DNA of 64,000 bases from positions 513,050-577,049 of the forward strand of contig CAZNJU010000001.1 in assembly GCA_964573625.1 (NCBI GenBank). The letters are read 5' to 3'. This DNA is from Candidatus Woesearchaeota archaeon. Lineage in GTDB: Archaea > Nanobdellota > Nanobdellia > Pacearchaeales > GW2011-AR1. Below, piece by piece: positions 1-21,354 of this stretch. The notes under the pieces were generated by a model, which worked only from the letters and a program-made list of their open reading frames with translations, had not been told where the DNA came from and ran no database searches. Numbering within the stretch: the stretch's first letter is position 1; every line of letters begins with the position of its first letter. A program made the position numbers and the translations under genes.

Positions 1-655
1 TTCCAAGGGCCTTGATAAGTAATACGGCAGGAATATTCTTCAATCTGCTGAATGTAACGTCCAGAATGCCTTCAGTTGTCTCAGTGATGGTCGTAGGGAT
101 ACGATAGGTCCCGCGTTGCGAGAATAGTCTAACCATCAAGCCATTACGGCCTTCTTCAATAAATGGCTGATTTGATGCAAGATCTTCAGCCATAACCATG
201 ATACGCTCATTACCATTGATAATAAAGTATCCTCCTGGGTCAAGAGGGTCAATATAATGTTCAATAAGCTGATCCTTGCCCATACCATCAGTGCTACATT
301 TAGCGCTTCGAACCATAACGGGAATACGTCCTACTTCAACCTCTCCACTGTCAGTTTGTTCTCCGTACTTAACGGTAAGTTCTACAAATGTAGGAGCAGA
401 GTATGTTAAACTTCGAAGGCGAGCTTCAGTAGGAGTAATAAGACTAACGCTTCCATCAGCTTCAATAACGTCAGGTTTACCGACACGAATTTTTCCAAGA
501 GTCACTTCAACATCCTCTTTGTTAGTAGTCTCGTTCACTTCATTCACAATCTGCTGCATGCGATGGTTAATGAAATCGTTAAAGCTTCGGATGTTCGACT
601 CTACAAGTGAGTGCTGTTCAAGATACTTCTTTACTAGTAGATGTTTTTCCTTCAT
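1..655 (-). CDS. rpoB: DNA-directed RNA polymerase subunit B (N-terminal part; gene runs off the window start)
   Basis: Reverse-strand translation from the ATG at 655..653 gives MKEKHLLVKKYLEQHSLVESNIRSFNDFINHRMQQIV...GRIPVMVRSAKC...GGYFIINGNERIMV, with conserved Rpb2/RpoB N-terminal motifs. Its start codon overlaps the rpoH stop (TAATG). It is not in the ORF track because it is truncated by the window edge. Confidence 0.85.
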   Translation of the reverse strand, partial: MKEKHLLVKKYLEQHSLVESNIRSFNDFINHRMQQIVNEVNETTNKEDVEVTLGKIRVGKPDVIEADGSVSLITPTEARLRSLTYSAPTFVELTVKYGEQTDSGEVEVGRIPVMVRSAKCSTDGMGKDQLIEHYIDPLDPGGYFIINGNERIMVMAEDLASNQPFIEEGRNGLMVRLFSQRGTYRIPTTITETTEGILDVTFSRLKNIPAVLLIKALG

Positions 656-861
656 TAGCTGACAACTCGGTAATATAAGCGAGATTCACCATCCATTGTT
701 CGTTGGATTTTGATAACGTCTCCACGTTGACATCCCTCAGGGACGGACAAATCGGTTGATTTTATTTTAGGCAATTGAGAAACAGATATGTTAAACTCGG
801 TCATTAATGATTTAACCTCTTCTGGTTTTAACTTTGTGTGTTTTGGCTGTAATACGTGCAT
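655..861 (-). CDS. rpoH: DNA-directed RNA polymerase subunit H (Rpb5-like)
   Basis: The 68-aa ORF MHVLQPKHTKLKPEEVKSLMTEFNISVSQLPKIK...GDVIKIQR...YRVV matches the archaeal RpoH pattern (HxLVPKHE...LPKI...GDVVR...YRLV). It sits directly upstream of rpoB, as in the archaeal rpoH-rpoB operon. Confidence 0.85.
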   Translation of the reverse strand: MHVLQPKHTKLKPEEVKSLMTEFNISVSQLPKIKSTDLSVPEGCQRGDVIKIQRTMDGESRLYYRVVS

Positions 862-974
862 GGTGATAGTCGGTAAAACGCTGAACGTGACCGGAGATTA
901 TGAGGAGTATAAAATACCCTTTTTAAATGTTTCGTACAAACCTCTATTCTCTTGTCCTTCAGCAGTTAAACAAA

Positions 975-1049
975 TGGCCCCGACGGGATTTGAACCCGCG
1001 ACACCTGGCTTAAAAGGCCAGTACTCTAACCGGACTGAGCTACGAGGCC
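975..1049 (-). tRNA. tRNA-Lys (anticodon TTT)
   Basis: Reverse complement GGCCTCGTAGCTCAGTCCGGTTAGAGTACTGGCCTTTTAAGCCAGGTGTCGCGGGTTCAAATCCCGTCGGGGCCA folds as a cloverleaf. It has a 7-bp acceptor stem, an anticodon stem CTGGC/GCCAG with loop CTTTTAA (anticodon TTT) and a T-loop TTCAAAT. CCA is not encoded. Confidence 0.85.
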
Positions 1050-1164
1050 GTACAAAACTAGAATCTAGATGATTTTTAAATGCTTTTATCAGCCCGTATG
1101 TGAAAAATTGATAGTTATTTCAAAGGGCAACAATTTTTATAAAGCTCTTACACGCACTGTCAGT

Positions 1165-1584
1165 ATGAGAAAAGGTCTAAGTTATATTCTTTCTACAGGA
1201 ATGCTTGCTTCGACAGCCGGATGTGGAATGTTTGGCGGTAAGAGTGAGATTGCTCATCAATATACCTTTGATACAGATGTAAAGACGAGACGTATAGAAG
1301 TAAGATACGAATCAAAGCAAGCTGAAAATGATATTCAAGTCGGACTCGTATATCGCCACGGTTTAGATGAAGATAAGGGCGCACCTATTACTGATGTAGA
1401 ATCAGACAAGTTTTTCACAGAACATTTTGTCAGAGCAAACACAGATGGTAAATTGTATATTTCAGAAAAGGATGCAGAAAACTTTAGAACAGAATCTTTT
1501 AAGTCATACCAGGAAAAAAGACTTTCTCAGAAAGAATTCAGAAGCATGAATTCAAGATCAAGTGAAGTTATAAGAGATAGATAA
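1165..1584 (+). CDS. putative lipoprotein (signal peptide with lipobox-like LASTAGC)
   Basis: The ORF track lists 1069..1584. An internal Met at 1165 begins MRKGLSYILSTGMLASTAGCG, a signal peptide with a lipobox-like Cys. The rest is hydrophilic. Confidence 0.45.
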   Translation: MRKGLSYILSTGMLASTAGCGMFGGKSEIAHQYTFDTDVKTRRIEVRYESKQAENDIQVGLVYRHGLDEDKGAPITDVESDKFFTEHFVRANTDGKLYISEKDAENFRTESFKSYQEKRLSQKEFRSMNSRSSEVIRDR

Positions 1585-1602
1585 TTTTTATTTTAAACTA
1601 AT

Positions 1603-1917
1603 TTAAGCAAAAGCTTCTTTTGTCTTTTTCTCAATCATCTCAGCGTTCATTGCTCCGGTATGACGATCAACCATTTCGCCATCTTTAAAGAAAATTGTCG
1701 TCGGTATTGACATAACTTCGAACTGACTCGCAAGTTCATATTCTTCATCAACATTTACCTTTGCGAACTTCACACTTGTGGCTTTCTCAGCTGCCTTTTT
1801 GAAATGGGGTTCCATCATTTTACATGGTCCACACCATTCAGCCCAGAAATCAACTACTACATTTCCTTTTGACGTGAATGCTGAGAAGTCCTTTTCTTTT
1901 AACTCTTTTATCGTCAT
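1603..1917 (-). CDS. trxA: thioredoxin
   Basis: 104 aa with a WCGPC active-site motif and a thioredoxin-length fold. Confidence 0.85.
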
Positions 1918-1951
1918 TATGTGAATTATAACGTTTAATTAATAAATGTTT

Positions 1952-3787
1952 TCATATCTTGCCAAGTTTTTTCGCAAGTTTTTCTGCATCGTCGAGTCTT
2001 TTTTCTATTTCTTTCAAGCCTTCCTGCCAAAATTTCTTTTCGTTAATATCAATTCCAACTCTCTTGAATAAATTTTTTGGTGAGTCAGAACAACCAGATG
2101 AAAACACATCTTTAACTTGAGAGATAAATGCCGGGTTTTCAGTAACTCTCTTTTGGAGCGCCTTAGCTATTAGAAGTCCGGAAGCATATGAATAAACATA
2201 GAAGTAGTTGCGTATATGGCTCCAATAAACCCACCAATTTTCTGATCCAGGAGATTGTTCAACAGCATTTCCCATATAGGCTTCCATATTCTTTGTGAAT
2301 ATTTCCCCGATTTCTTTCATAGAGAGATATCCTTTTTCCTTGAAAGTTGAATGTATTTCCTGTTCAAATAAATAACAGGCGACCTGTCTAAATATAGTGC
2401 TTATATCATCTCCAAGTGAAGAAACGAGCAACGCGAGACGCGTATCTTCATCAGATTTTCTTAAAAGTTCATCGAAAACAAAGTCTTCCATAAAAGTACT
2501 AGCCACTTCTGACGTCGATACGGGAGTGTTAAAATTCAGCGCGTTCTGTTTTTTCGATAATTCTGAATTTATTGCATGTCCAAACTCGTGAGCTATTGTC
2601 GTAATATCGCGCAATTTATTAGTATAATTAAGGCAGACATATGTTGGGAAAGCAGGTCCCCACCAAACGCAAAATGCTCCTCCACGCTTTCCTTTCCTTG
2701 GGAACGCGTCTACCTGTCCTTTCTTTAGAAATTCATCAAAAACATTAGAGAAGTAAGGATCAACTTTATTGAAGACATTTCTTACGAGTTCAACAGATTC
2801 TTCAAATGTATACGAGTCATTTATTTTCCCATATTGTACATTGCGTTCATGATATGCAAGTCGCGGGAGTTTCAACAATTTTGCCTTAAATGCATAATAT
2901 TTCTTAGACACGTGAAAGAAATCACTAACACTTTTGACTAACGTGTCAACAACTTCCGTCTCCATATCATCACCTATATGACGATGAGTATCTGGGCGAG
3001 GATAGTTCCGTAAATCGTCATTTATTTTCCTGTTCTCCATAACTGAATTCATCTCAGCCTCGGCAACTTCAACATGTTTTTTCAAAATATCATTGAAAGC
3101 TTGCACTGCAGAATCTCTTATTTTTTTGTTAGAATCGCTCAATAACGTCGTAATCTCAGAAAAGTTTTTATTTTTCATCGTTCCGTCACTATCAAGCACT
3201 GGTCTTTCTTCTTTTGACAAAAATCCAGAAACCATTCGAGTCCAATTCTGATAAGATGTAGAACTCTTCATAGTCATTATTTTTTCTTCATTCTCACTGA
3301 GCGTGTGTTTTCCAACTATGAAAACTCTCTCAAGAAAATGTCGATAATTCACAAGTTGAGAATCTGTAAGAAATATTTTTTGGTAATTTTCTTTAATTTT
3401 AGACAAATTAATTGTGAAAAAATTAATTTCTGTGAATATTTTTTTATACGCTTCTTCAACTTTTTTCCTCTTAGCTTTTAGATCAGTATCCATATCATTT
3501 TCCTGACCTCGCAACCAAAAGTAATATCCTTCTTTTCCACCGTCAGAATAAGCGCGTTCTAGTTTTTCATATTCATCAAGCGCTTCTTTAAGTATACGAG
3601 GATCGCGTAAATAATCGTCTCGAGGTTTCCATTTAGCTATGAACGTTTTAGTGGCTTTCTCAGCTTTCTCACGTTCTTTTTTAATGGAAGAATCATCATC
3701 GCTTTTGAAAAAAGGAGATAAATCCCATTCAGTTTTCACAACCATACGTCGAATAAGGTTAAAACCTTTATAAAGAAACGTATACAA
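1952..3787 (-). CDS. pepF: oligoendopeptidase F (M3B family metallopeptidase)
   Basis: 611 aa with the HEFGH zinc-binding motif (IAHEFGHAINSE) and M3-type architecture. Confidence 0.75.
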   Translation of the reverse strand: MYTFLYKGFNLIRRMVVKTEWDLSPFFKSDDDSSIKKEREKAEKATKTFIAKWKPRDDYLRDPRILKEALDEYEKLERAYSDGGKEGYYFWLRGQENDMDTDLKAKRKKVEEAYKKIFTEINFFTINLSKIKENYQKIFLTDSQLVNYRHFLERVFIVGKHTLSENEEKIMTMKSSTSYQNWTRMVSGFLSKEERPVLDSDGTMKNKNFSEITTLLSDSNKKIRDSAVQAFNDILKKHVEVAEAEMNSVMENRKINDDLRNYPRPDTHRHIGDDMETEVVDTLVKSVSDFFHVSKKYYAFKAKLLKLPRLAYHERNVQYGKINDSYTFEESVELVRNVFNKVDPYFSNVFDEFLKKGQVDAFPRKGKRGGAFCVWWGPAFPTYVCLNYTNKLRDITTIAHEFGHAINSELSKKQNALNFNTPVSTSEVASTFMEDFVFDELLRKSDEDTRLALLVSSLGDDISTIFRQVACYLFEQEIHSTFKEKGYLSMKEIGEIFTKNMEAYMGNAVEQSPGSENWWVYWSHIRNYFYVYSYASGLLIAKALQKRVTENPAFISQVKDVFSSGCSDSPKNLFKRVGIDINEKKFWQEGLKEIEKRLDDAEKLAKKLGKI

Positions 3788-3795
3788 AGAAATAT

Positions 3796-4662
3796 ATGAA
3801 GCGCGTTCTCATCATTATTCTCTCTCTTCTCATAGTAATAGGCGTTGTGCAATTACTGTTCCAAAGCAAACCCTCTTCAGCCCAATCAATCGAACTTTCG
3901 CACGGAGCTATTGCATACGATCAATATGGAAACGGTTCACGAATTATCATACTGATTCATGGAAGTCCTGGCACAAGCAAGGAAGATTTTTCAGTGCTTG
4001 GACCAGCAATATCTCCTAGATATACCGTTTATGCACTCAACATGTACGGATTCGCCAATTCAGCATCATACGTGAGAGACTACAGCATACAATCCTCAGC
4101 AGAAACTGTTCGGGAGTTTATGGATGCAAAAAATATCTCTGAGGCAGTCATACTAGGTTATTCGTGGGGTGGCGGAGTCGCTATAGAATTCGCCCATGCC
4201 TATCCATCCAAAACTGCAGGATTAATTTCTCTTTCGGGCATGGGAATACAAGAAGGAGAAATCACTGGCACGTATTGGGGAGAAAAAATACGCTCTTCAG
4301 TCGCACTACCTTTCGTTTTAATCTATCCAGGAGTATTTGCAGGAAGTTTTGAATCTCGTTATGGTTTTATGCGAAGTTTTCTTGACTCCGATCAACGACC
4401 ATTGCGTGAATATCTTTCAGAAATCGACGTCCCTACGTTGATTCTTCAAGGTGATACTGACTACGTAATCGCGCCATGGGTAGGGGAAGAACATGCTCGT
4501 CTCATTAAAAAAAGCAATCTTGTCTATTATCACGGAAATCATCACACGGTTTACACAAACGTGAGTGAAATTGCGCCAGCCATCAATGAATTTCTTATGC
4601 AACTTGATCGTTCTGAAACTCAAGCTCACGTCAATCTATTCATTGAAGGGAGTTCAGCATGA
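3796..4662 (+). CDS. secreted alpha/beta-fold hydrolase
   Basis: 288 aa with an N-terminal signal/TM segment, the GxSxG nucleophile elbow GYSWGGG, and HGSPG near the N-terminus. Confidence 0.6.
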   Translation: MKRVLIIILSLLIVIGVVQLLFQSKPSSAQSIELSHGAIAYDQYGNGSRIIILIHGSPGTSKEDFSVLGPAISPRYTVYALNMYGFANSASYVRDYSIQSSAETVREFMDAKNISEAVILGYSWGGGVAIEFAHAYPSKTAGLISLSGMGIQEGEITGTYWGEKIRSSVALPFVLIYPGVFAGSFESRYGFMRSFLDSDQRPLREYLSEIDVPTLILQGDTDYVIAPWVGEEHARLIKKSNLVYYHGNHHTVYTNVSEIAPAINEFLMQLDRSETQAHVNLFIEGSSA

Positions 4663-5000
4663 ATCGCTCACATATCGTAAAAGATGTAATCATTGCTCTT
4701 GGAATTTGGTGGGCTCTTGCCATCGGTCTCGGGACGTTGCAATTATACGGTTCATACAGACAAATATACATAATTCCCGTCGGAATAGCACTCATGGCGC
4801 TCGTATTTGTAGCCCACGCAACACTTGCACAATTTTATCCAAAACGAGCAGTCACAAAATATATTCTAGGCGCATATATAGCCACATTCTTCATACCGTT
4901 AGTCATGCAGTTCGTAGGTTTGCGCCAGCCAGGTATCGATACAATCATAGTTGCATTATTCGGATTGTTTTTCTTTATTCTATCCTACGAAGAAAAGTAA
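4659..5000 (+). CDS. small integral membrane protein
   Basis: 113 aa with three predicted TM helices. Its start overlaps the upstream stop (ATGA). Confidence 0.45.
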   Translation: MNRSHIVKDVIIALGIWWALAIGLGTLQLYGSYRQIYIIPVGIALMALVFVAHATLAQFYPKRAVTKYILGAYIATFFIPLVMQFVGLRQPGIDTIIVALFGLFFFILSYEEK

Positions 5001-5705
5001 TCATTTCTTAACAGGTGGAAAACCATTTCGCGCTCCCCATGTAAACGGAGATGTTCGCCAATCAGCAAGCATATCTGCTTGCTCTTGATCAATATATCTT
5101 TTTGATTGAGCGACATCAAGAAGAGTATTATATCCAAGAAGCGAAGTTGGTACACAAGAATGATCTAAACATCGATTTCCATCAAACGGTACTCTGCCTT
5201 CAAACATGTTTCTTGCTTCTACAAATCCGTAATTGAATATAGAAAAACAATTTACAATATTACCTTCAGCATCACGTATGGCTTGCACTGCTTTGACAGA
5301 ACTTCCTCCCGTAGAAACAAGATCTTCAATAAGGGAAACTTGCTTATGTTCAAGCGTTTTATCAGCCGCAATACCCTCAATCTGATTTTTTAGACCATGT
5401 TCCTTCGGCTTATCTCTTACGTAAATCATAGGCAACTTAAGCCTATCAGCGACGAAAGAAGCCCAGGGGATTCCAGCAGTAGATGTTCCAGCGACTACTT
5501 CTGACTTGCTTAAAGATACTTTTTCAACAAGTCGCTTAATAATATGTTCACGTGCATCTTCATGCCCTAAAAATAATCGATTATCATTGTAAATAGGCAT
5601 GTAATATCCTGAAGCCCATAAAAAGGGTTGAAGAGGGTTAACTTTTATTGCTCCAATGCGAAGAGCATGAACTGCCAATTCTTCTGCACATCGTTCTTCA
5701 TTCAT
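5001..5705 (-). CDS. pyrE: orotate phosphoribosyltransferase-like (type I PRTase)
   Basis: 234 aa with a PRPP-binding motif VSLIEDLVSTGGS and an OPRT-like N-terminal region (ASGYYMPIY resembles SGxxSPYYxD). Confidence 0.55.
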   Translation of the reverse strand: MNEERCAEELAVHALRIGAIKVNPLQPFLWASGYYMPIYNDNRLFLGHEDAREHIIKRLVEKVSLSKSEVVAGTSTAGIPWASFVADRLKLPMIYVRDKPKEHGLKNQIEGIAADKTLEHKQVSLIEDLVSTGGSSVKAVQAIRDAEGNIVNCFSIFNYGFVEARNMFEGRVPFDGNRCLDHSCVPTSLLGYNTLLDVAQSKRYIDQEQADMLADWRTSPFTWGARNGFPPVKK

Positions 5706-5729
5706 AATATCTTTCCAACAAAAGAGTAG

Positions 5730-8591
5730 TTATTCCCCGCAACCACTACGAGAGGTGTTATTACAGCTTGTGCACTTAATTGCACAGTTACCAATTCGCT
5801 TTGCTGTTCCACCACAGATAGGGCAGAGAATACCTTCATTACCAAACTCTTTAATTGTCTTCTGCTGATCAAGAGTTGGCTGTTCCAGTGTCTCTATTTC
5901 GAACTCTATCTTTCCTTTACCTTCGCCAAACTGATTAAGCATAAATTGCGAAACATAGTCGACAATGGAGGATGCACTTCGTATCTTAGGAGATAGCTCA
6001 TCAAGTTCTCCCGCATTTGCGTTGCGTACAAATCCAGCAGGTTCAAATTTATGATGTCTGAACTTGTCGAAGAGCACTTCAACAGGGAGACCATACTGGA
6101 GGTTAAGTGAAACGGACATTGCCCACGCATCCATTAAACCTCGGATAGTCGATCCTTGCTTATGCATAGTTACGAATATTTCTCCAGGTTTACCATTATC
6201 ATACAATCCGATGGTCAAGTAACCTTCATGCCCTGCAATATCAAACTTATGCGTAACTGACTTACGTGTCTGAGGGAGTCGCAACCGTTCTCCTGAACGA
6301 GGGGCCTTTTCTTTCTTGACCATTTCTCCTTCAGTCTTCTGTGTATTAAGTGGCTGGCTTCGCTTACTATTTTCACGATAGATAGCTACTGCTTTCAATC
6401 CCTGTTCCCATCCGAATATGTATGTCTCAGCAATCTCACTTGCAGTAGTATGTTCAGGCATATTTACTGTCTTACTGATTGCTCCAGAGATGAACGGTTG
6501 TGAAACGCCCATCATCTTAATATGGCCTTTGTGATGAATGAAGCGCTTTCCTTTAGCAGCCTTAAAGGCACAGTCAAATACAGCTAAATGTTCGTCTTTC
6601 AAACCAGGCGCACCTTCAATGGTATCATTCTTATCGACAAAAGAAATAATCTCTTGAATAGCTGCCTCATCATATCCCAGATTTTTTAGAGCAAGTGGAA
6701 CTGAACGATTAACTATCTTAAGCATTCCTCCACCTGAAAGCACTTTATACTTGACAAGAGCAATATCCGGTTCAATACCTGTGGTATCACAATCCATCAT
6801 AAACGCAATCGTTCCGGTAGGTGCAAGAACAGTAGCTTGGGAATTTCGATATCCATGTTTCTCTCCAAGATCGACAGCCTCACTCCAACAATCCCATGCA
6901 TCATTAGCAAGGTATCGTAAATCATTAGGCATCTTGTTGACTTCTATTTTCTTCACAGAATCTCGATGCATGCGCATAACTTCAAGCATTGATTCTTTGT
7001 TCTGAGCATATCCTGGGAACGGACCGACTGCACGAGCTATTTCAGCGGACGCTCTGTACGCCTCACCACACATAATCGCGGTAATTGCGGCAGCAACTGC
7101 TCGTCCTTCATCAGAGTCGTACGGCAATCCAATGCTCATAAGCAATGCACCTAAATTAGCATATCCTAGTCCAAGTGGTCGATAGTCATGAGAATTGCGG
7201 GCAATTTTCTGTGTTGGGTAGCTAGAACCATCTACAGCCAGATCCATAGCGATAATGAACGAGCGGACGACTTTCTTGAATCGTTCAACATCAAATTTAC
7301 CTTCATCAGTTCTAAATTTCATCAGATTGATTGAAGCAAGGTTACACGCACTATCATCCAAGAACATATACTCACTACATGGGTTGGACGCGTTAATTCT
7401 TCCTGAAGCCTTACATGTGTGCCATTTATTGATAATAGTATCAAATTGCATTCCAGGATCTCCGCAAATGTGTGTACCTTCAGCTATCTTGTTAAGTACC
7501 TCTCGCGCCTTAAGCGTCTGACATATTTCTTTCGTAGAAACCATGTGCGTTTGCCATTCACCATCGCGTTTTACAGATTCCATAAATTCATCAGGAACTC
7601 GAACTGACATATTACAATTCTGGAAGAAGATACTTCCATAAGCCTCTCCATTCATACCGCCCTGGTACCCTTGCTCAATAAGTGCCCATGCCTTCTTCTC
7701 TTCTTTCTGCTTTGATTCTATAAATTCAACAATATCAGGGTGATCGACGTTCAATATTTCCATCTTAGCAGCACGTCTTGTCTTTCCGCCTGATTTTATA
7801 ATTCCCGCGTAGGCATCGTATCCTCGCATGAAAGATACCGGTCCAGAAGGTCTTCCTCCTCCTGTCAATCGCTCATGAGTGCTACGTAAGGGAGAACGAT
7901 TAGTACCTGTACCTGATCCTGCTTTGAACAAAAGCGCTTCGGCAAGTTGTACCTGAAGAATAGATTCCATATTATCTTCAATACTTTGAATGAAACACGC
8001 AGAACACTGAGGCCTATCATCAGTCTTATCAGTGTGTATTACCGTGTCTGTTGCCGCATCCCATTTCCAGGCAGATACTCCGCCCGCATTACGATCATAC
8101 TCTTGAATGCCTGCATTAAACCAGACAGGTGAATTAAACACACATAACTGATTAAGACAAATAGAAGCAATTTCATCACGTAGAATCGCGCTACGTTCAG
8201 CATCCATATACCCTTGCTTGAGTGCCTGACGTCCAATAAATCGAGCTACACGTCCTACAAGCTGTTCTATTGAGCTTTCACGTTCGCCTTTAGCTTGATT
8301 ACCCCAGAAATATTTACTTGCAACAACTTTGATAGCAAGAGGTGACCAGAATTCGGGTCGTCGGACATTTGGCTGGACGAAAATGACCTTGCCCATGTCA
8401 TCACTCACTTTAACTTCCTCGCTCACCCAGCGGATAGGATTTCCATATATATCAAACTCAAATGGGCTCTTACCTTTCTGTGTAAAGAAATGATCCATGT
8501 TCAGACCAGACATAGGGAGAATATGTTTAGAATCAAATGTTCCACCAGCGGTAATATCGTCCTGTGCTCTTTTTGGTGTTTCCTTTTCCAT
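5730..8591 (-). CDS. nrdJ: ribonucleoside-triphosphate/diphosphate reductase, class II (adenosylcobalamin-dependent)
   Basis: 953 aa with class II RNR length and catalytic-core motifs, and a C-terminal Cys-rich zinc-ribbon tail (CPICGG...CTSCNN). It is translationally coupled to nrdR (shared base at 8591). Confidence 0.85.
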   Translation of the reverse strand: MEKETPKRAQDDITAGGTFDSKHILPMSGLNMDHFFTQKGKSPFEFDIYGNPIRWVSEEVKVSDDMGKVIFVQPNVRRPEFWSPLAIKVVASKYFWGNQAKGERESSIEQLVGRVARFIGRQALKQGYMDAERSAILRDEIASICLNQLCVFNSPVWFNAGIQEYDRNAGGVSAWKWDAATDTVIHTDKTDDRPQCSACFIQSIEDNMESILQVQLAEALLFKAGSGTGTNRSPLRSTHERLTGGGRPSGPVSFMRGYDAYAGIIKSGGKTRRAAKMEILNVDHPDIVEFIESKQKEEKKAWALIEQGYQGGMNGEAYGSIFFQNCNMSVRVPDEFMESVKRDGEWQTHMVSTKEICQTLKAREVLNKIAEGTHICGDPGMQFDTIINKWHTCKASGRINASNPCSEYMFLDDSACNLASINLMKFRTDEGKFDVERFKKVVRSFIIAMDLAVDGSSYPTQKIARNSHDYRPLGLGYANLGALLMSIGLPYDSDEGRAVAAAITAIMCGEAYRASAEIARAVGPFPGYAQNKESMLEVMRMHRDSVKKIEVNKMPNDLRYLANDAWDCWSEAVDLGEKHGYRNSQATVLAPTGTIAFMMDCDTTGIEPDIALVKYKVLSGGGMLKIVNRSVPLALKNLGYDEAAIQEIISFVDKNDTIEGAPGLKDEHLAVFDCAFKAAKGKRFIHHKGHIKMMGVSQPFISGAISKTVNMPEHTTASEIAETYIFGWEQGLKAVAIYRENSKRSQPLNTQKTEGEMVKKEKAPRSGERLRLPQTRKSVTHKFDIAGHEGYLTIGLYDNGKPGEIFVTMHKQGSTIRGLMDAWAMSVSLNLQYGLPVEVLFDKFRHHKFEPAGFVRNANAGELDELSPKIRSASSIVDYVSQFMLNQFGEGKGKIEFEIETLEQPTLDQQKTIKEFGNEGILCPICGGTAKRIGNCAIKCTSCNNTSRSGCGE

Positions 8592-14159: not shown

Positions 14160-16085
14160 CTAATTCTTATTTCTTCCTAAGAAACCTTTCAAGAACGATT
14201 CGTGTTTTGCTCTATCAAGAATGGCATTGAGCTTATATGCGCCGAGCGTGTTAATCTTTTCAGCTTTGACGACATTCATAATAGGCCGGTGTGTTGTTGG
14301 CGATAAAAGTACGTTGCCTTCTGATAATGTTGCAAGGCGCTTAGCTCCAGGTATGAGTGTGCCCACGGCGGTAAACTCAAACTTTCCTTGCTTCATTTCA
14401 GAGATAATTGAACCACTTACAGCGCCAATACCAAATTGCACGGTATTTCTCCCGCGGGAATTATGTTCTTTCATTGCACTTTCAACTTCCTGCGCACACT
14501 TAGCCGCAAGCAATTCATGATTCTGTTTCTTCGTAAGTGAAGGTGAGAATAGAAGTAACTTGTATTCTTCATCATTGTATACTTTTACTCCTTCACGACG
14601 TGCATGTTCTAATACGTCCTGCGCTTTAGGAGGTATAACTCCATTAGGTGTCTTGAATGCAACAACACTTGCAGGTTCTTTTTTGCCTTCAGAAGTCGTA
14701 AGGGCAGACATTTTCATTGTCCCACCAGATGTTTTTCCAGCAGGGGATTCTTTTGACATTTTCATTGTCCCCTTCATTGAACCACGCCTTCTGACATAAA
14801 AGTTCATGAACAATACAAGCGCAACAAGCACAAGTAAAAATATAGTGGCATAACTTGCCTTGAAGTATCCTTCACGCACTTCACCGAGATTAATAGCACG
14901 ACCTGTAAGAGGAATATTATCAAATGAACTTGCATCCTCTCCGCCTTTTACACTGACAGAATACGTAGAATCCTCTCCGTATAATTTATATTTCTTAACT
15001 TGCCCTACTCCGAGGTCAAGATCACGAACATACGTCGTATTCCCAATAATTATTTCAATAGGCTGCGTATATCGCACGTTTCCAATATTGGTAATGATTA
15101 GCGTAGTATTAACAATTTCAAATCGTATGTGTGCATTTTCAGGAACATAGAACAACTTCTTGCGTATCATTCCTTCCGTTTCGGCCTGCACCTTCCAATA
15201 TCCCGGAGAGGCATTCTGATTCAAGGTAAACGCTTGTTCAGTTCCTGTGCGTACAAGCTTAGAAATGAATGACACGTCCTGTGGTGAGAAAAGCGTGACT
15301 TTGGTATCTTTATCAAGCACGTTTGCAGCTTGATCATATGCATTTACGGCAAACGTTATGGAATCGCCCGCGGCAATGGATTGATTATTAAGAGTTATTT
15401 CCAAATTTCTTAAGACAACACGGACAGAAAATGACGTCTCATGCGCTCCTTCGTTTGCAACCTGATTTGCGCTATCTCGTTCTACTGCACTCACGCGCAT
15501 GACTAACTGTCCTGGCGCAAAATCTTCAGGTAACGTAAGATTCAATGAAAATATTCCGTTTGAGGCAACGCCTGAAACGCTTCTATTTCGTCCAGTGATT
15601 TGAGCATCAATAGGTCCTGAAAACTGCTGGCCATTTGCTTTTTTTGCAGTGCCTGTAATACGTACACTTTCCCCGGGATTGTAAGACGTAGCGCTGAGTG
15701 AGAAATCAACATCAATTACATTAGAAAGTTGAAATTGAGCACTATTTCTTGTATCTCCGTCAAGGCTTGCTTGCAGCGTGCATGTGCCTTTGAGATCAGC
15801 GATGATGTTATGATTAAGTTGAGTCGTAATAGCGACGTCTTTACTTGCGCCCGCTGTCAGATGAATTGCGCTTCTATAGAGTTCTATCTCATTTCCATCA
15901 CAGACAATTTTAACACTTAAGAAATCATTCACTGCATTTGTAGCATGTACTGTTACAATCATATTCAACTCATCACCTAAATTATAGAGCGGTTGAGGCT
16001 GATTGAATAACAATTCTCCAGAAGCAAGCGGAAGAATCGCGATAAATAACATCACCCAAATATATTTCATACTTTTCCAATGCAA
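14160..16085 (-). CDS. large surface protein with C-terminal TM anchor and cytoplasmic tail
   Basis: 641 aa. A signal peptide is followed by ~430 aa of Thr/Ser/Asn-rich beta-type extracellular domains and a TM helix (FLLVLVALVLF). The ~200-aa cytoplasmic tail contains a segment resembling a class III nucleotidyl-cyclase homology domain (FGIGAVSGSII...FTAVGTLIPGAKRLATL). Confidence 0.6.
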   Translation of the reverse strand: MHWKSMKYIWVMLFIAILPLASGELLFNQPQPLYNLGDELNMIVTVHATNAVNDFLSVKIVCDGNEIELYRSAIHLTAGASKDVAITTQLNHNIIADLKGTCTLQASLDGDTRNSAQFQLSNVIDVDFSLSATSYNPGESVRITGTAKKANGQQFSGPIDAQITGRNRSVSGVASNGIFSLNLTLPEDFAPGQLVMRVSAVERDSANQVANEGAHETSFSVRVVLRNLEITLNNQSIAAGDSITFAVNAYDQAANVLDKDTKVTLFSPQDVSFISKLVRTGTEQAFTLNQNASPGYWKVQAETEGMIRKKLFYVPENAHIRFEIVNTTLIITNIGNVRYTQPIEIIIGNTTYVRDLDLGVGQVKKYKLYGEDSTYSVSVKGGEDASSFDNIPLTGRAINLGEVREGYFKASYATIFLLVLVALVLFMNFYVRRRGSMKGTMKMSKESPAGKTSGGTMKMSALTTSEGKKEPASVVAFKTPNGVIPPKAQDVLEHARREGVKVYNDEEYKLLLFSPSLTKKQNHELLAAKCAQEVESAMKEHNSRGRNTVQFGIGAVSGSIISEMKQGKFEFTAVGTLIPGAKRLATLSEGNVLLSPTTHRPIMNVVKAEKINTLGAYKLNAILDRAKHESFLKGFLGRNKN

Positions 16086-16144: not shown

Positions 16145-17269
16145 ATGAAAAAGAGTCAGGTTACGCCTTGGGATGTTTCAGGCTCAGTTGACTATGAAAA
16201 CATTATAAAAGAGTTCGGTGTTGAAAGAATAACTCCTGAACTTTTGAAAAGAATTGAGAAACTAGCTGGCGAAGCTCACTTCATGTTAAAAAGAGGAATA
16301 TTCTTCGCACATCGAGACCTTAAATGGTTGCTTGATCAGTACGATGCAAAAAATAATTTCTTCCTATACACGGGTCGCGCACCATCAGGACAAGTTCACC
16401 TAGGACATCTTTTACCCTGGGTGTTTACCAAATGGCTTCAAGACGTATTCAACGTTGAACTCTGGTTTCAATTTCCTGATGAAGAAAAGTTTCTTTTTAA
16501 GCAAGAAATGACTTTTGATGAAACGCAGAAATATTTACAGGAGAATATGCTAGACGTTATCGCTCTTGGGTTCAATCCTAAAAAAACGTTTTTCCTTATT
16601 GACACGAAACACGCAAGTTTAATGTACAAAGAGGCATGTAAAGTCGCGAAGAAAATTACTTTTTCTCAAGTTAAATCATCATTTGGAATGACTGATCAGA
16701 ATAATATCGGTTCTATTTTCTATACGGCTATGCAGGCAGTTCCTGCGTTTCTTCCTTCGGTCATTCAGAAAAAAGAAATTCCGTGCCTCATTCCACATGC
16801 TATTGATCAGGATCCACACTTCCGATTAACAAGAGATATTCTTCCTAAGCTCGGACATCACAAACCTGCTTCGATTCAGTGTTTGTTCCTTCCACCATTA
16901 ACAGGTGATGGAAAGATGTCTTCTTCGCAAGAATCGTCTGCAATTTACACGACTGATACCCCTGAAATGGTAAAGAAGAAGATAAACAAGTACGCATTTT
17001 CAGGCGGTAAAGACACGCTAGAAGAGCATAGAAAACACGGAGGCAATCCGGACATAGACATATCATTCCAGTATTTGCGAATGTTTCTCGAACCAGACGA
17101 CAAAAAACTCGCTAAGATTGAAAAAGAGTATCGTTCAGGCAAGCTTCTTTCGGGAGAGTTAAAAGCAATTGCAATAGATAAGATAAATGATTTTCTTAAA
17201 GACCATCAGAAAAAAAGAGAAGCCGCAAAGAAGAAAGTAGACGACTATATCTTAAATGTTAAGTTCTAA
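16145..17269 (+). CDS. trpS: tryptophan--tRNA ligase (archaeal/eukaryotic type)
   Basis: 374 aa with the HIGH-type motif GQVHLGHLLPW and the KMSKS-type motif KMSSSQ. Confidence 0.9.
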   Translation: MKKSQVTPWDVSGSVDYENIIKEFGVERITPELLKRIEKLAGEAHFMLKRGIFFAHRDLKWLLDQYDAKNNFFLYTGRAPSGQVHLGHLLPWVFTKWLQDVFNVELWFQFPDEEKFLFKQEMTFDETQKYLQENMLDVIALGFNPKKTFFLIDTKHASLMYKEACKVAKKITFSQVKSSFGMTDQNNIGSIFYTAMQAVPAFLPSVIQKKEIPCLIPHAIDQDPHFRLTRDILPKLGHHKPASIQCLFLPPLTGDGKMSSSQESSAIYTTDTPEMVKKKINKYAFSGGKDTLEEHRKHGGNPDIDISFQYLRMFLEPDDKKLAKIEKEYRSGKLLSGELKAIAIDKINDFLKDHQKKREAAKKKVDDYILNVKF

Positions 17270-17789
17270 GAACGTCTTTTACAATTAAACGAGGACTCAT
17301 TCCTCTCTTGCGCATTTCTCGTTCACAATCTATTGTTCTATCATTAATTACTTGGTGTCCGAACTGAAGATAATTTTCAGTATCTTCTCCTAGAAAACAA
17401 GTAGCATGCGTATATCTAACAGGGTTTTGTGCCCGGTCTTTCTGCTTACCGTTTAGGGTGCTTTGAGAGTTATGAAACATGACAAGATCTCCAGGTACAA
17501 GTAGTTCAGACGCATATAAATCTCGTAAAGTTTCAAATCTTTCTGGACCTACAACGGGAATAGATTCATACCAAAAGGGAAGATTCCACGCTTCACGATA
17601 ACCTTCAGGAGCATCATAGTGTCTCCCAAAAAAACTGTTTGAGACACGACGCGCATATCCTGCACAGTTTCCAGCAGGAACTCCGCCATCTTTCCAGTCA
17701 TTTAAAGAAAATTTAGGAAATGTGACAAATTTGCCATCAGCATTTTCGAATACCTCCCACCCATCAACACATAATCTTTGAGAACTCAT
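17259..17789 (-). CDS. CHAP/NlpC-P60-like cysteine peptidase domain protein (paralog 1)
   Basis: 176 aa. It shares a Cys motif (NCAGYARRV) and a downstream His motif (YTHATCFLG) with the adjacent paralog. It is the last gene of a four-gene coupled operon. Confidence 0.45.
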   Translation of the reverse strand: MSSQRLCVDGWEVFENADGKFVTFPKFSLNDWKDGGVPAGNCAGYARRVSNSFFGRHYDAPEGYREAWNLPFWYESIPVVGPERFETLRDLYASELLVPGDLVMFHNSQSTLNGKQKDRAQNPVRYTHATCFLGEDTENYLQFGHQVINDRTIDCEREMRKRGMSPRLIVKDVLRT

Positions 17790-17795
17790 AGTACC

Positions 17796-18446
17796 TTATT
17801 TCTTTTTAGAAGTAATTACTTCAACTGGCTTAAGACCTGTTTTCTCCATAGCTTCTAGAGAAATTCGTGGTCTTGTTTTTGATCCAAATTTATCGGCGAA
17901 GAAAAGAGTGTTTCCTTCCTTACCTAGATAGAGAGCCATGTGAGTATATCCTGCTTTCTTTGCTCCTTTATCATAATTATATTCGCTTCGAGGATAGTAC
18001 ATTCCTACCGCATCACCGGGTACCAGGCTTCCTTCGTTAGCTAACTGTTCAAGAGTCTTATTGTTAAGAGGAATTATTTTTACAGAAGAATTTTCACGAA
18101 AATCCCATACATTAGCGTAAGGATAATTTCTATTAAACAATTCTTTTGCAGCAACACGTACGTATCGAGCGCAATAACCATTAGGAACGCCTTTCTCCTG
18201 ATTTTCAGAATATACTGGTCCTTTAAGCGGAAGACTGCTTGGCAAAGGTGCTTCATAATTAAAAGAATTAAGAGGGGTGTTAACAGGTTCAAGCGAGCGT
18301 GTTACTATCGGATATTGAGAAGGTTTAGTTCCAGGCTCAGGACTTATTCCGCGAGAAACATATAATGGAATAAGAGTTGCAAGACCCATAAGCCCAGCTA
18401 GAGGAATATATTTTGTATTTCTTTTGTAAGTACATTTCTTGTCCAT
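17796..18446 (-). CDS. secreted CHAP/NlpC-P60-like cysteine peptidase domain protein (paralog 2)
   Basis: 216 aa with an N-terminal signal/TM segment, GYCARYVRV and YTHMALYLG motifs, and LVPGD shared with paralog 1. Confidence 0.45.
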   Translation of the reverse strand: MDKKCTYKRNTKYIPLAGLMGLATLIPLYVSRGISPEPGTKPSQYPIVTRSLEPVNTPLNSFNYEAPLPSSLPLKGPVYSENQEKGVPNGYCARYVRVAAKELFNRNYPYANVWDFRENSSVKIIPLNNKTLEQLANEGSLVPGDAVGMYYPRSEYNYDKGAKKAGYTHMALYLGKEGNTLFFADKFGSKTRPRISLEAMEKTGLKPVEVITSKKK

Positions 18447-18811
18447 TATGCTGCTTTACCCCTAATATGTTCGTATTCACGAACGTGGAACTGGAAATCA
18501 CCAACATCAATATTTAAACCTTCGCCTAATTTGAGCGCAATAACATGTCTTTCTGGGAAAGATTGCATAAATCCGATGCCTCTGACAAGGTTTTGATACG
18601 TTTTCTCTGAAATAGTACCTTCTGGTGAAGCTTGAACTGCAATCGTCACAGGACGTCTGTAAACCTGCTCAATAGCTCTATCAATTGTCAATTCGTTATC
18701 TGAGACACGTCCATCATACATCTGATTACCCGAAACATATTCACGAGCACTCTCTGCAAATCTGGCAAGCATTCCAGGCTCTTTCACCAATCTAACGATA
18801 TTTTGTTCCAT
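18446..18811 (-). CDS. hypothetical protein
   Basis: 121 aa. Its start/stop is coupled with both flanking genes on the same strand. Confidence 0.4.
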   Translation of the reverse strand: MEQNIVRLVKEPGMLARFAESAREYVSGNQMYDGRVSDNELTIDRAIEQVYRRPVTIAVQASPEGTISEKTYQNLVRGIGFMQSFPERHVIALKLGEGLNIDVGDFQFHVREYEHIRGKAA

Positions 18812-19074
18812 TAGCTTCCATCTCCCCTTAGAGGAACAGTAAGAAACCTATTATTCCGCGGATCCGCAATAAATGAGCTTATTTCAGAAGTTATTCTTTC
18901 AAGAAGTGCTTCTCCGCTTCCATTAAGGTCTTCACCACGCGTAACTCGAGCATACACGTTTGCAGGGCAAATGTTTCTTAGGATTGGAACGGCCATAACA
19001 GGATTACCTGCCTTGCTAATAGTAAGATAACCTGTCTTAGTACATGCTCGAACGTCATACATATCGTTTGTCAT
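18811..19074 (-). CDS. hypothetical protein
   Basis: 87 aa. It is the first gene of the coupled minus-strand cluster 19074->17259. Confidence 0.4.
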   Translation of the reverse strand: MTNDMYDVRACTKTGYLTISKAGNPVMAVPILRNICPANVYARVTRGEDLNGSGEALLERITSEISSFIADPRNNRFLTVPLRGDGS

Positions 19075-19175
19075 GTAAATTAGTCAAAAACTCACTATAT
19101 AAAGCTTTCTCCTATAGTTCCTAAGTAGTAGTAACAAATAGTAATCTTTATATATAGCTTATTTGTGCTTTCAGT

Positions 19176-19598
19176 ATGAAAAATAGAAGCGATTTAAAGA
19201 GCTATTTGGAAGAAAGCCTAGCTTTGCAAACATACGTCCCCGGAGAAGAATTAGACCCCTTAGTCGCTCTTTCTCAAATGGCTGGTCTCGATACACTCGT
19301 TTCTCATCTTGACGCTGAACAATGCAATTGGGAAACTATCGAGTATTTCGGAATCAAACCTCATAATTCAGAGCCCTCTCCTGAAGCTGTTTTTAATCGT
19401 AGCAAATCTTTCTATCTCTCTAATGGACTAAAACACACAGGATGTATAGATCATGACGCAGACGATAAGGGCTCACTAGAACAGTATGCTACCAGTTTTA
19501 CAGAACCATCAGGACGAGCTCTCTATTTGCGCGTTGTCAAGACAGGAAAACCACACCCTTCTTTTTCTGTAACTTCTTCCTATTATGTTGGCGAATAG
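19176..19598 (+). CDS. hypothetical protein
   Basis: 140-aa ORF with no recognisable motif. Confidence 0.4.
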   Translation: MKNRSDLKSYLEESLALQTYVPGEELDPLVALSQMAGLDTLVSHLDAEQCNWETIEYFGIKPHNSEPSPEAVFNRSKSFYLSNGLKHTGCIDHDADDKGSLEQYATSFTEPSGRALYLRVVKTGKPHPSFSVTSSYYVGE

Positions 19599-19632
19599 AC
19601 ATTCTTAAAAACCTTCTTTTCTACATACCTGT

Positions 19633-21354
19633 ATGAAAATACTTACGTTGCATTGTGACTACATCAAGTTTCAAGCGCTCAAAAAAGCGGTAAAGGATGT
19701 TCCCGAAGTCGAAAAAGGCGAGCATGAGGTGAAAGAATGTCTTGTTGTTATGACTGCAGTCGAAAAAGGCGATTCTCAACAGGAATTAAACGAAATGCTT
19801 GAAGCCGTGAAGAAAACGGCTCATGAAGTCAAAGCTAAAAATGTCGTCTTATATCCGTATGCACATCTCTCTTCTAACTTATCAGCTCCTAAAATTGCAT
19901 TAGAGATGTTGGAGAAAGCAGAAATCATCTTAAAAAAAGATTTTTCAGTGACGCGAGCACCGTTTGGATATTACAAGACGTTCGAGCTTAAATGCAAAGG
20001 TCACCCGCTTTCAGAATTAAGCAAGACTTTTGGAAGTACATTAACAACGGTAACGAAGAAACTCCCTGAAGTTGAGCTTACAGCAGAAGATATCAAGCGT
20101 CTTCTTAGGGAAATGAATCCTACTAGACTTGATACCTCTAAACTCAAAGATAACGATCATCGTATTTTAGGTCAACGGCTTGAACTGTTTGGATTCAACG
20201 AGGTATCTCCAGGAGCAGCATTCTGGTATCCGGCAGGATTGCATATTTACAATAAGTTAGTCGAACTTGCTCGTAATGTACAAAACCTACATGGATATCA
20301 AGAGATTGCTACCCCTCAAATTCTCGGTACGTCGCTCTGGAAAGTTTCAGGACATTGGAATCATTACAAAGATAACATGTTCCTAACGTCGTATGAAGAG
20401 AGAGATTTTGGAGTCAAACCAATGAATTGTCCAGGCGCAATGCTTATGTTCAGATCAAAAACGCGAAGTTACAAAGATCTTCCGTTGCGATTTGCAGAAT
20501 TTGGCGTTGTCCATAGACAAGAGCTCTCAGGAGTACTTGCAGGATTGTTTAGAGTTGTTCGTTTCACGCAAGATGATACACATATTTTCTGTGCACCAGA
20601 ACATATTGAATCTGAAATCCATCAATTACTGAAATTGATTGAGTTCTATTATAAGAAAACGTTTGGCTTTGAATATCGTGTAGAACTTTCAACAAGACCA
20701 GAGAAGTCAATGGGAACTAAAGAACAGTGGGATCAGTCGGAAAAAGCTTTAGAAAACGCTCTAAAAAAGGCTAAAACGGCATATAAAATCAATAAGGGAG
20801 ATGGCGCTTTTTACGGCCCTAAAATAGATATTCACATCAAGGACTCCTTGGGAAGAAGCTGGCAGTGCGGAACAATACAACTTGACATGCAAATACCTGC
20901 TCGCTTTGAATGTACGTATACCGGAGCAGACAACAAAGAATACACTCCATGGGTTATCCATCGCGCTCTATTCGGATCAATGGAACGCATTATTGGAATT
21001 CTGCTAGAGCACGTCAACGGAAATCTCCCACTCTGGCTCTCGCCTCGTCAAGTACGAGTGATTAACTTTACCGATCGTAATGCAAAAGCCGCTGAGAAAC
21101 TTGTAGAAGAGCTACGAGAAGCCATTCCTTCCCTCAAGGTAGATATCGATCTCCGTACCGACACAGTGCAATCAAAAGTTCGTGATGCTGAATTACTCAA
21201 AGTAAACTATATCATCGTTGTAGGTGACAAGGAAGAGGAATCAAAGACATTGGCAGTCAGACCACGAGGTCAAAAACCTAAGTTCGGGGTCAAAAAAACA
21301 ACCTTCATTGAAGATTTGCAAAAAGAGATTGCAGAGCCATATAAATCTTTATAA
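19633..21354 (+). CDS. thrS: threonine--tRNA ligase (archaeal type with N-terminal editing domain)
   Basis: 573 aa. The archaeal-type N-terminal editing domain is followed by a class II catalytic core (FRVVRFTQDDTHIF motif-2-like) and an anticodon-binding domain. Confidence 0.9.
   Translation: MKILTLHCDYIKFQALKKAVKDVPEVEKGEHEVKECLVVMTAVEKGDSQQELNEMLEAVKKTAHEVKAKNVVLYPYAHLSSNLSAPKIALEMLEKAEIILKKDFSVTRAPFGYYKTFELKCKGHPLSELSKTFGSTLTTVTKKLPEVELTAEDIKRLLREMNPTRLDTSKLKDNDHRILGQRLELFGFNEVSPGAAFWYPAGLHIYNKLVELARNVQNLHGYQEIATPQILGTSLWKVSGHWNHYKDNMFLTSYEERDFGVKPMNCPGAMLMFRSKTRSYKDLPLRFAEFGVVHRQELSGVLAGLFRVVRFTQDDTHIFCAPEHIESEIHQLLKLIEFYYKKTFGFEYRVELSTRPEKSMGTKEQWDQSEKALENALKKAKTAYKINKGDGAFYGPKIDIHIKDSLGRSWQCGTIQLDMQIPARFECTYTGADNKEYTPWVIHRALFGSMERIIGILLEHVNGNLPLWLSPRQVRVINFTDRNAKAAEKLVEELREAIPSLKVDIDLRTDTVQSKVRDAELLKVNYIIVVGDKEEESKTLAVRPRGQKPKFGVKKTTFIEDLQKEIAEPYKSL

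Follow-up and report, generated by a model that had tools for sequence, protein, structure and literature searches.

NlpC/P60 peptidoglycan endopeptidases (MEROPS C40; PF00877), among them MepS/Spr of Escherichia coli, LytE and CwlO of Bacillus subtilis and NlpC1 of Trichomonas vaginalis, and CHAP amidases/endopeptidases (MEROPS C51; PF05257), represented by the CHAP domains of phage endolysins and by glutathionylspermidine amidase, are the closest described systems to a pair of adjacent paralogous genes, here called par1 and par2, in a Candidatus Woesearchaeota archaeon. The pair lies on the minus strand of a 64,000-nucleotide stretch of DNA (the window; GenBank assembly GCA_964573625.1, contig CAZNJU010000001.1, positions 513,050 to 577,049 of the forward strand), as the last two genes of a putative four-gene operon situated between the genes for tryptophanyl-tRNA synthetase (TrpRS) and threonyl-tRNA synthetase (ThrRS). 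Sequence comparison and structure modelling indicate that both products are very probably papain-like (clan CA) Cys-His enzymes of the non-permuted NlpC/P60-CHAP branch with a predicted catalytic triad. By sequence they fall outside Pfam CHAP and NLPC_P60 and represent a separate, divergent and previously unannotated family.

This family, found in DPANN archaea, differs from C40 enzymes in several respects. It gives no PF00877 match and has conserved motifs of its own (P77, Y95, R97, W114, G144, S154 and Y-T-H); the third residue of the predicted triad is Asp, Glu or His, and one third of the members are leaderless. The distance from Cys to His is 77 residues in par2 and 86 in par1, as against about 51 in C40 (51 in E. 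coli MepS), because of inserted helices, so that an earlier interpretation of the bare sequence (the sequence-only reading) erred in calling this spacing typical of CHAP and NlpC/P60. All named members come from Woese-, Pace- or Nanoarchaeota, none of which makes murein. From CHAP enzymes par1 and par2 are set apart by the lack of a hidden Markov model (HMM) match and by a His motif, YTHxxLYLG, which resembles HVGIYxG of NlpC/P60. The locus is also unlike the NlpC/P60 amidase effectors of type VI secretion systems (Tse1/Tae1, Tae2, Tae3): no secretion-system genes were seen beside the par1/par2 operon, and the small partner proteins (87 and 121 amino acids) are encoded upstream and carry no signal peptide, whereas Tai immunity proteins are periplasmic. 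An archaeon would, moreover, need no immunity to a murein hydrolase.

Murein-degrading enzymes have been described in archaea before. Large extracellular murein transglycosylases are attributed to Pace- and Woesearchaeota in two reports (PMC8204110; PMC9723730), and the peptidoglycan hydrolases of archaea, which feature prominently in Nanoarchaeota, are able to kill bacteria (PMC12352652). For DPANN and Asgard archaea, the 2025 catalogue of such enzymes already includes proteins that combine LysM with NLPC_P60 or with SLT and that Pfam recognises, the former in an Aenigmarchaeote and the latter in Woesearchaeales (PMC12352652). The proposed biology is the same here, namely murein-free archaea with exported murein-degrading enzymes aimed at bacteria. 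The catalogued enzymes, however, were found through Pfam catalytic models and are modular by requirement, whereas the family of par1 and par2 is invisible to those models and mostly single-domain, and would therefore have been missed. The catalogued hydrolases are also described as patchy and plasmid-biased, whereas this family has a fixed place on the chromosome, in a slot flanked by two aminoacyl-tRNA synthetase genes. A full-text literature search returned no paper containing both "DPANN" and "NlpC". What is new here is a large family unseen by standard models, with its own motif set and restricted so far to these archaea, together with a fixed synthetase-flanked slot in which hydrolase classes appear to replace one another.

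Fold, active site and extent of the family

The gene par2 (17796-18446, minus strand) encodes 216 amino acids comprising a predicted N-terminal signal or anchor, a Pro/Ser/Thr-rich linker of ~45 residues and a divergent NlpC/P60-like domain at residues ~75-216. Its hydrophobic segment, residues 13-31 (YIPLAGLMGLATLIPLYVS; 18354-18410, minus strand), is an uncharged stretch of 19 residues preceded by five Lys or Arg, in agreement with the signal or transmembrane anchor that the sequence-only reading had placed on this paralog. The product of par1 (17259-17789, minus strand; 176 amino acids; family HMM E=7e-39) is leaderless, with no hydrophobic segment found at its N-terminus by hydropathy. That the two are paralogs with common motifs, as the same reading had it, is confirmed by BLASTP (E=3e-12, 29% identity over 149 residues) and by the presence in both of a Cys motif (NCAGYARRV / GYCARYVRV), LVPGD and a His motif (YTHATCFLG / YTHMALYLG).

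Standard profiles do not recognise these proteins. The HMM searches for CHAP (PF05257) and NlpC/P60 (PF00877) by which the sequence-only reading proposed to check its assignment gave no match for either, and a search of Pfam and NCBIfam at E<=10 was likewise empty for par1 and par2; the four operon proteins and the product of a neighbouring 140-codon gene yielded nothing meaningful in these databases. A Pfam scan of 125 family members produced sub-threshold catalytic matches only, those that recurred being to families of clan CA: Peptidase_C92 in five and CHAP in two (best E=0.0025), besides NLPC_P60 in one (E=0.011) and C97 in one, so that neither PF05257 nor PF00877 is reached at its gathering threshold. 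The same scan found two twin-arginine translocation (Tat) signals and one solid LysM domain. Profiles built from 8 and from 125 members found no meaningful match among Protein Data Bank (PDB) sequences.

At the level of the superfamily the papain-like assignment of the sequence-only reading is upheld. When the 125 members were compared by hhalign with an alignment of four NlpC/P60 proteins of E. coli K-12 (MepS, MepH, NlpC and YafL), the match had a probability of 93.7% and E=1.9e-7, and it paired Cys92 of par2 with the DCSG Cys of MepS, His169 with the His of HVGIY, and Asp185 with the third catalytic His. Across 152 aligned members, which share just ~25-45% identity, the Cys is present in 152, the His in 151, and His, Asp or Glu at the third position in 143 (69, 37 and 37, respectively).

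An AlphaFold2 model of par2, built on a shallow alignment of eight sequences, has a predicted local distance difference test score (pLDDT) above 90 across the catalytic domain, while residues 1-70 are disordered. It shows the papain-like alpha+beta fold of the NlpC/P60 superfamily, in which an N-terminal helix packs on an antiparallel sheet, and places the predicted triad as that superfamily does, with Cys at a helix N-terminus, His on a strand and a polar residue on the next strand. The predicted nucleophile, Cys92 (codon TGC, 18171-18173, minus strand), stands at the N-terminus of helix 92-104; the predicted base, His169 (17940-17942, minus strand), begins strand 169-177; and Asp185 (17892-17894, minus strand), the predicted third residue, lies on the neighbouring strand 180-187. 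In par1 the corresponding predicted triad is Cys42 (17664-17666), His128 (17406-17408) and His145 (17355-17357), all on the minus strand, so that Cys precedes His in both proteins and the residue order is non-permuted. Foldseek searches with the par2 model against the PDB retrieved MepS and a CHAP lysin at E=0.04-0.1 and probability 0.97-0.98, with CHAP scoring below NlpC/P60; among viral structures the best match was a phage "cell wall hydrolase", with CHAP proteins next. The closest structural and sequence relationships are not with C39 peptidases, and fusion to an ABC transporter was not found.

An exhaustive HMM search placed 411 representative clusters (at 50% identity) in the family, 262 of them at E<=1e-10 and most 150-230 amino acids long. 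Members whose source was named all came from Pacearchaeota or Nanoarchaeota, and the loci gathered later carry the labels Woese-, Pace- or Nanoarchaeota. A simple hydropathy rule assigns an N-terminal hydrophobic segment to 95 of 150 other members, a few of these with Tat or lipobox motifs, and none to the remaining 55. In related loci L001-L007 (loci are cited by survey number) the leaderless state is real, since the gene starts only 47-107 nucleotides from the divergent ThrRS gene; par1 belongs to a leaderless subclade of its own with member P0045 (42% identity). The two tandem family genes of L011 arose by a separate duplication.

Few members carry additional domains. The L018 member (gene 5001-5762) combines the family domain with a LysM domain (E=1.5e-12) in one protein; divergent from this gene, on a 396-kb contig, is a giant gene (1-4891, minus strand) whose product is 9078 amino acids by gene call. 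Members P0039 and P0071 have a C-terminal region of ~270 residues, and P0055 and P0150 an extra domain of ~150 residues on either side of the peptidase domain. These fused domains contain motifs reminiscent of lytic transglycosylases (FEES...GPYQV...AAYNSG; GIEPELLMAxRxxENG), and we considered that identity for them. Pfam found nothing in them, hhalign against E. coli Slt, MltC, MltD and EmtA gave non-significant probabilities of 0.9% and 27%, and tblastn against phage records returned nothing useful; the identification is not supported, and the fused domains are not used as evidence.

Both peptidase genes are under purifying selection, with ratios of nonsynonymous to synonymous substitution (dN/dS) of 0.11-0.23 against the close relative L008 (0.11 for par1). 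Against the same relative, dN is 0.057 for par2, 0.035 for par1 and 0.003 for the neighbouring ThrRS gene, that is, the peptidase genes evolve 10-20 times faster; and in L032, the family carrier with the most similar ThrRS (78% identity), the family protein is just 40% identical to par2. This would be expected of a protein that works at the surface or in interactions, or of genes replaced within the slot.

A slot between two synthetase genes

The left border of the slot is the TrpRS gene (16145-17269, plus strand; Pfam tRNA-synt_1b) and the right border the ThrRS gene (19633-21354, plus strand; PF08915, PF00587 and PF03129), both identified also by synteny, so that its equivalent in the window is 17270-19632. 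The TrpRS gene and par1 converge, and their 3' ends share 11 nucleotides (17259-17269). PF08915 is the archaea-specific editing domain of ThrRS, which marks the host as an archaeon, and the flanking TrpRS is archaeal-type. The window is part of a 760-kb contig. A DPANN-type source is supported; the closest ThrRS relatives are metagenome-assembled genomes labelled Woesearchaeota, Nanoarchaeota or Pacearchaeota.

Loci were first gathered through the family itself, and in these a family gene always stands beside ThrRS, usually with TrpRS and a membrane protein of 640-700 amino acids with an MG2 domain opposite. To avoid this selection, a second survey was seeded with ThrRS alone; it recovered a conserved block in the order MG2 protein, TrpRS, slot, ThrRS and a 223-amino-acid protein. 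Among the 30 ThrRS-seeded Woese-, Pace- and Nanoarchaeota loci with both borders, in which slot open reading frames (ORFs) were picked by eye before Pfam analysis and for which the counts stand without a genome-wide background rate, the slot holds a family gene in seven and another recognised murein hydrolase in nine (L027, L028, L060, L061, L063, L065, L070, L073 and L075). Six of these nine are identified by Pfam above the gathering threshold: SLT with PG_binding_1 in L027, Phage_lysozyme in L028, Hydrolase_2 in L060, SLT with a Tat signal in L063, and Amidase_3 in L065 and L073; the remaining three (L061, L070, L075) were assigned through phmmer to those six. The slot of L068 has only a DUF5675 protein and that of L046 a lysozyme-like protein judged by eye only, and in 12 of the 30 no hydrolase was recognised.

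The family is thus patchy and not core. The possibility that it is a near-core gene fixed beside ThrRS is not supported, since the ThrRS-seeded survey found it in only about one complete slot in four, and the nearest ThrRS relatives, L027-L029, have no family gene there. Instead, the slot looks like a site of non-orthologous replacement among exported hydrolase classes. Several of the SLT, lysozyme, Amidase_3 and SleB-like classes depend on N-acetylmuramic acid (MurNAc). Because the family interchanges with murein-acting classes at one position, this pattern is the best available evidence that it, too, acts on murein.

In individual loci, family genes are accompanied by genes linked to the cell wall. 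The operon of L023 encodes, in order, a 126-amino-acid protein, an unrelated 87-amino-acid transmembrane protein, a signal-peptide-bearing Hydrolase_2 / SleB-like protein (E=4e-16) and a par1 ortholog; the Hydrolase_2 / SleB-like protein stands where par2 stands in the window. In L011 the tandem family pair is followed by a Tat-signal LysM protein, for whose N-terminal domain neither Pfam nor hhalign gave an assignment. Next to the family gene of L024 is an RlpA-like DPBB_1 protein, matched over the full profile but below threshold (E=9e-5).

Other occupants and variants of the block were also observed. In the more distant relatives a KaiC/RadA-like P-loop protein of ~240 amino acids is frequent in the slot (L053, L054, L057, L060, L061, L064, L068, L075-L079 and L092), in most cases together with a small transmembrane protein of ~100 amino acids; the window has neither. 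One contig with a KaiC-like slot gene, L056 (JBNMFJ010000014.1), is titled "Patescibacteria group bacterium", although it has an archaeal-type ThrRS 51% identical to that of the window, TrpRS and DPANN synteny, and it is probably mis-binned or mislabelled. In some distant relatives (L055, L083, L086 and L096) the ThrRS gene is directly followed by another ORF weakly similar to ThrRS (E about 1e-5), which may encode a separate ThrRS-related protein.

The four-gene operon and its neighbours

The ORF listing agrees with the sequence-only reading in placing four tightly packed, co-directional minus-strand genes at 17259-19074. The junctions between the 87- and 121-codon genes and between the latter and par2 are TAATG stop/start overlaps, and a gap of 6 nucleotides separates par2 from par1; from these overlaps alone, translational coupling of the four genes may be proposed. 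A TATA-box-like element of archaeal type, TTTATATA (19096-19103, minus strand), read from the sequence, lies ~26 nucleotides before the first ATG of the operon. The element is unchanged in L008, where the operon is ~93% identical at the nucleotide level, and is a predicted promoter, implying a leaderless or short-leader operon transcript. All four ORFs are present in L008 at 89-97% amino-acid identity with dN/dS of 0.09-0.37, which shows that they are real genes rather than chance ORFs. The sequence-only reading had suggested looking for the same operon in related genomes; the gene order 87-121-216-176 was found only in the close relative L008, and most of the related loci surveyed have one family gene or none.

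The first gene of the operon (18811-19074, minus strand) encodes 87 amino acids with no hydrophobic segment. Both upstream genes had been described as orphans. This stands for the 87-codon gene, which recurs in L008 only (89.7% identity; dN/dS 0.37 on few substitutions). It does not stand for the 121-codon gene (18446-18811, minus strand; dN/dS 0.09 against L008), whose stop overlaps the par2 start codon (TAATG) and whose cytoplasmic product ends in ...RGKAA: a search of 5.8 billion sequences returned, besides its own cluster, one distant homolog, the 126-amino-acid protein of L023 (E=1e-18), which has the same context. The AlphaFold2 model of the 121-amino-acid protein is unusable (pLDDT 43).

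Small cytoplasmic proteins of 121-138 amino acids with a C-terminal [RK]AA are encoded just upstream of the slot hydrolase in the window (18446-18811, minus strand) and in L023 (2714-3094), L028 (6641-7021), L029 (5813-6226) and L032 (4365-4745). In the surveyed loci, which comprise 1787 ORF segments of at least 100 amino acids, only seven segments end in [RK]AA, and six of the seven are these upstream ORFs. When the proteins of L028, L029 and L032 were compared with the 121-amino-acid protein by hhalign, the probability was 0.1%, and homology between the three sequence groups was not detectable.

Divergent from the operon and directly upstream of ThrRS is a lineage-specific gene of 140 codons (19176-19598, plus strand), shared with L008 only; the gene at the same position in L027 shows weak similarity to it (E=0.02). 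On the far side of TrpRS lies the gene for a 641-amino-acid membrane protein (14160-16085, minus strand) with a signal peptide, an MG2 / Ig-like ectodomain (Pfam MG2, E=1e-8), a transmembrane segment and a cytoplasmic domain. It is orthologous to a 694-amino-acid protein of L001 (E=8e-83) and is a conserved neighbour by synteny; in several relatives the MG2 gene is directly downstream of the family gene. Its cytoplasmic C-terminal domain of ~200 residues bears a very weak resemblance to nucleotidyl cyclases (Pfam Guanylate_cyc, E=0.19). Farther along, the window encodes a TraG/VirB4/HerA-like P-loop ATPase (61869-63941, minus strand; PF19044, E=1e-24) and, near it, a 1292-amino-acid protein with no Pfam match (53562-57440, plus strand).

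Likely targets of par1 and par2

We favour, with some reserve, the reading that par1 and par2 are predicted peptidoglycan peptidases, that is, endopeptidases or amidases on the murein stem peptide, with bacterial murein as their target. Murein cleavage is suggested by the LysM fusion in L018, the Hydrolase_2 operon of L023 and the replacement of hydrolase classes within the slot. The archaeon itself does not make murein, hence the wall attacked would belong to a bacterium, whether host, prey or neighbour. The sequence-only reading had raised the possibility that an episymbiont's amidase acts on a foreign envelope, and the genomic context points in that direction, towards a bacterial wall.

A number of observations weigh against this reading. 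Neither par1 nor par2 is matched by Pfam, NCBIfam or PDB sequences, the best Foldseek E-value (0.04) is weak, and the par2 model rests on eight sequences. Murein is not the substrate of every enzyme in the NlpC/P60 superfamily, which includes acyltransferases, glutathionylspermidine amidase and poly-gamma-glutamate hydrolases. Neither par1 nor about one in three family members has an export signal; the nearest ThrRS relatives lack the family in their slots; 12 complete slots have no recognised hydrolase; and the slot counts depend on ORFs chosen by eye, with no background rate for comparison.

That par1 and par2 serve the archaeon's own surface instead, by trimming or maturing S-layer or other surface proteins, by C39-like leader removal or by acting with the 641-amino-acid MG2 protein, seems rather unlikely to us. 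Such a role would suit the leaderless third of the family, the setting among housekeeping genes and the arrangement in L001-L007 and L012, where the family gene lies directly upstream of a 640-700-amino-acid MG2 gene on the same strand with a gap of 24-46 nucleotides. The MG2 gene is kept, however, where the slot has no family gene, hence the two are no obligate pair; the weak Pfam matches among members are to C92, CHAP and NLPC_P60 and never to C39; and the LysM fusion and the replacement by SLT, lysozyme, SleB-like and Amidase_3 enzymes make no sense for a self-protein protease. This last observation bears equally on the idea, which we regard as improbable, that par1 and par2 are directed at an archaeal host, a methanogen for example, whose wall of pseudomurein or other non-murein material would be opened by cleavage of gamma-Glu or epsilon-Lys isopeptide bonds, the reaction of pseudomurein endoisopeptidases. 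Gamma-glutamyl bonds are commonly cut by NlpC/P60 enzymes, but the enzymes found in the same slot of relatives (SLT, Amidase_3, SleB-like and GH24 lysozyme) are murein-acting, and MurNAc, which several of these classes need, is absent from pseudomurein. PG_binding_1 is present in one slot protein and LysM in one family member, whereas pseudomurein-binding repeats were not seen, and PeiR ranks far below NlpC/P60 enzymes. An archaeal target would nevertheless agree with the statement that those DPANN archaea whose hosts are known live as episymbionts on other archaea (PMC8204110).

The fold might also serve a different reaction, as in an acyltransferase or phospholipase of the LRAT/HRASLS type or an amidase of gamma-glutamyl or polyamine conjugates; this is unlikely overall and most plausible for par1, which has no export signal, in a superfamily that does have lipid-acting members. 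The LRAT and YaeF groups are circularly permuted, whereas here Cys precedes His; the membrane-anchoring C-terminal helices are absent; the genomic context points to the cell wall; and par1 keeps a full predicted triad and is accompanied, in the window as in L023, by a predicted exported wall hydrolase. Highly improbable, finally, is a coincidence at the level of the fold, with par1 and par2 as non-catalytic binding or structural modules. The want of a Pfam match, the weak Foldseek E-values and the shallow alignment under the model would allow it, but the Cys, the His and a third residue that is acidic or His are kept almost without exception in 152 sequences of such low identity, hhalign sets these residues on a known triad, and both genes are under purifying selection.

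In the mechanism that we propose, the four genes would be transcribed as one unit from the TATA box upstream of the 87-codon gene, and par2 would be exported through its N-terminal signal or anchor, either secreted or inserted with the N-terminus inside and the C-terminus outside. The flexible linker of ~45 residues would then hang the catalytic domain on the outer face of the membrane, where tethered par2 could cut the wall peptides of a bacterium touching the archaeon. Cys92, activated by His169, itself oriented by Asp185, would attack an amide bond of the murein stem peptide; candidates are the bond between gamma-D-Glu and the diamino acid, that between D-Ala and meso-diaminopimelic acid (mDAP) and that between MurNAc and L-Ala, among which the sequence does not tell. 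Cytoplasmic NlpC/P60 enzymes act in bacterial wall-recycling pathways, and by analogy par1 may stay in the cytoplasm and trim imported wall peptides, or it may exit by another route. A recognised signal is present in only 32% of archaeal peptidoglycan hydrolase homologs (PMC12352652).

A broader proposal, which we put forward tentatively and as a whole consider doubtful, is that the TrpRS-ThrRS interval of Woese- and Pace-type DPANN archaea is a dedicated, fast-swapping "wall-breaching" locus with an accessory module. Under this proposal, each lineage may keep one exported murein-cutting enzyme, of a class suited to its bacterial partner, and the slot would help to set the range of bacterial hosts or prey. 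The leaderless paralog and the small cytoplasmic [RK]AA proteins could together form a new accessory module, with a possible part in the delivery or control of the hydrolase, or in breaking down the freed wall peptides to feed a cell auxotrophic for amino acids.

Pace- and Woesearchaeota make up a large share of archaeal diversity, and may live on bacteria. A widespread but hidden family of wall peptidases, together with the replacement of hydrolase classes at one chromosomal position, would independently support an engagement of these archaea with bacterial murein, and would mean that Pfam-based catalogues of archaeal peptidoglycan hydrolases undercount. As par1 and par2 are small and, apart from the anchor, soluble, their bond specificity, for mDAP-type or Lys-type murein, could narrow down the partner bacteria.

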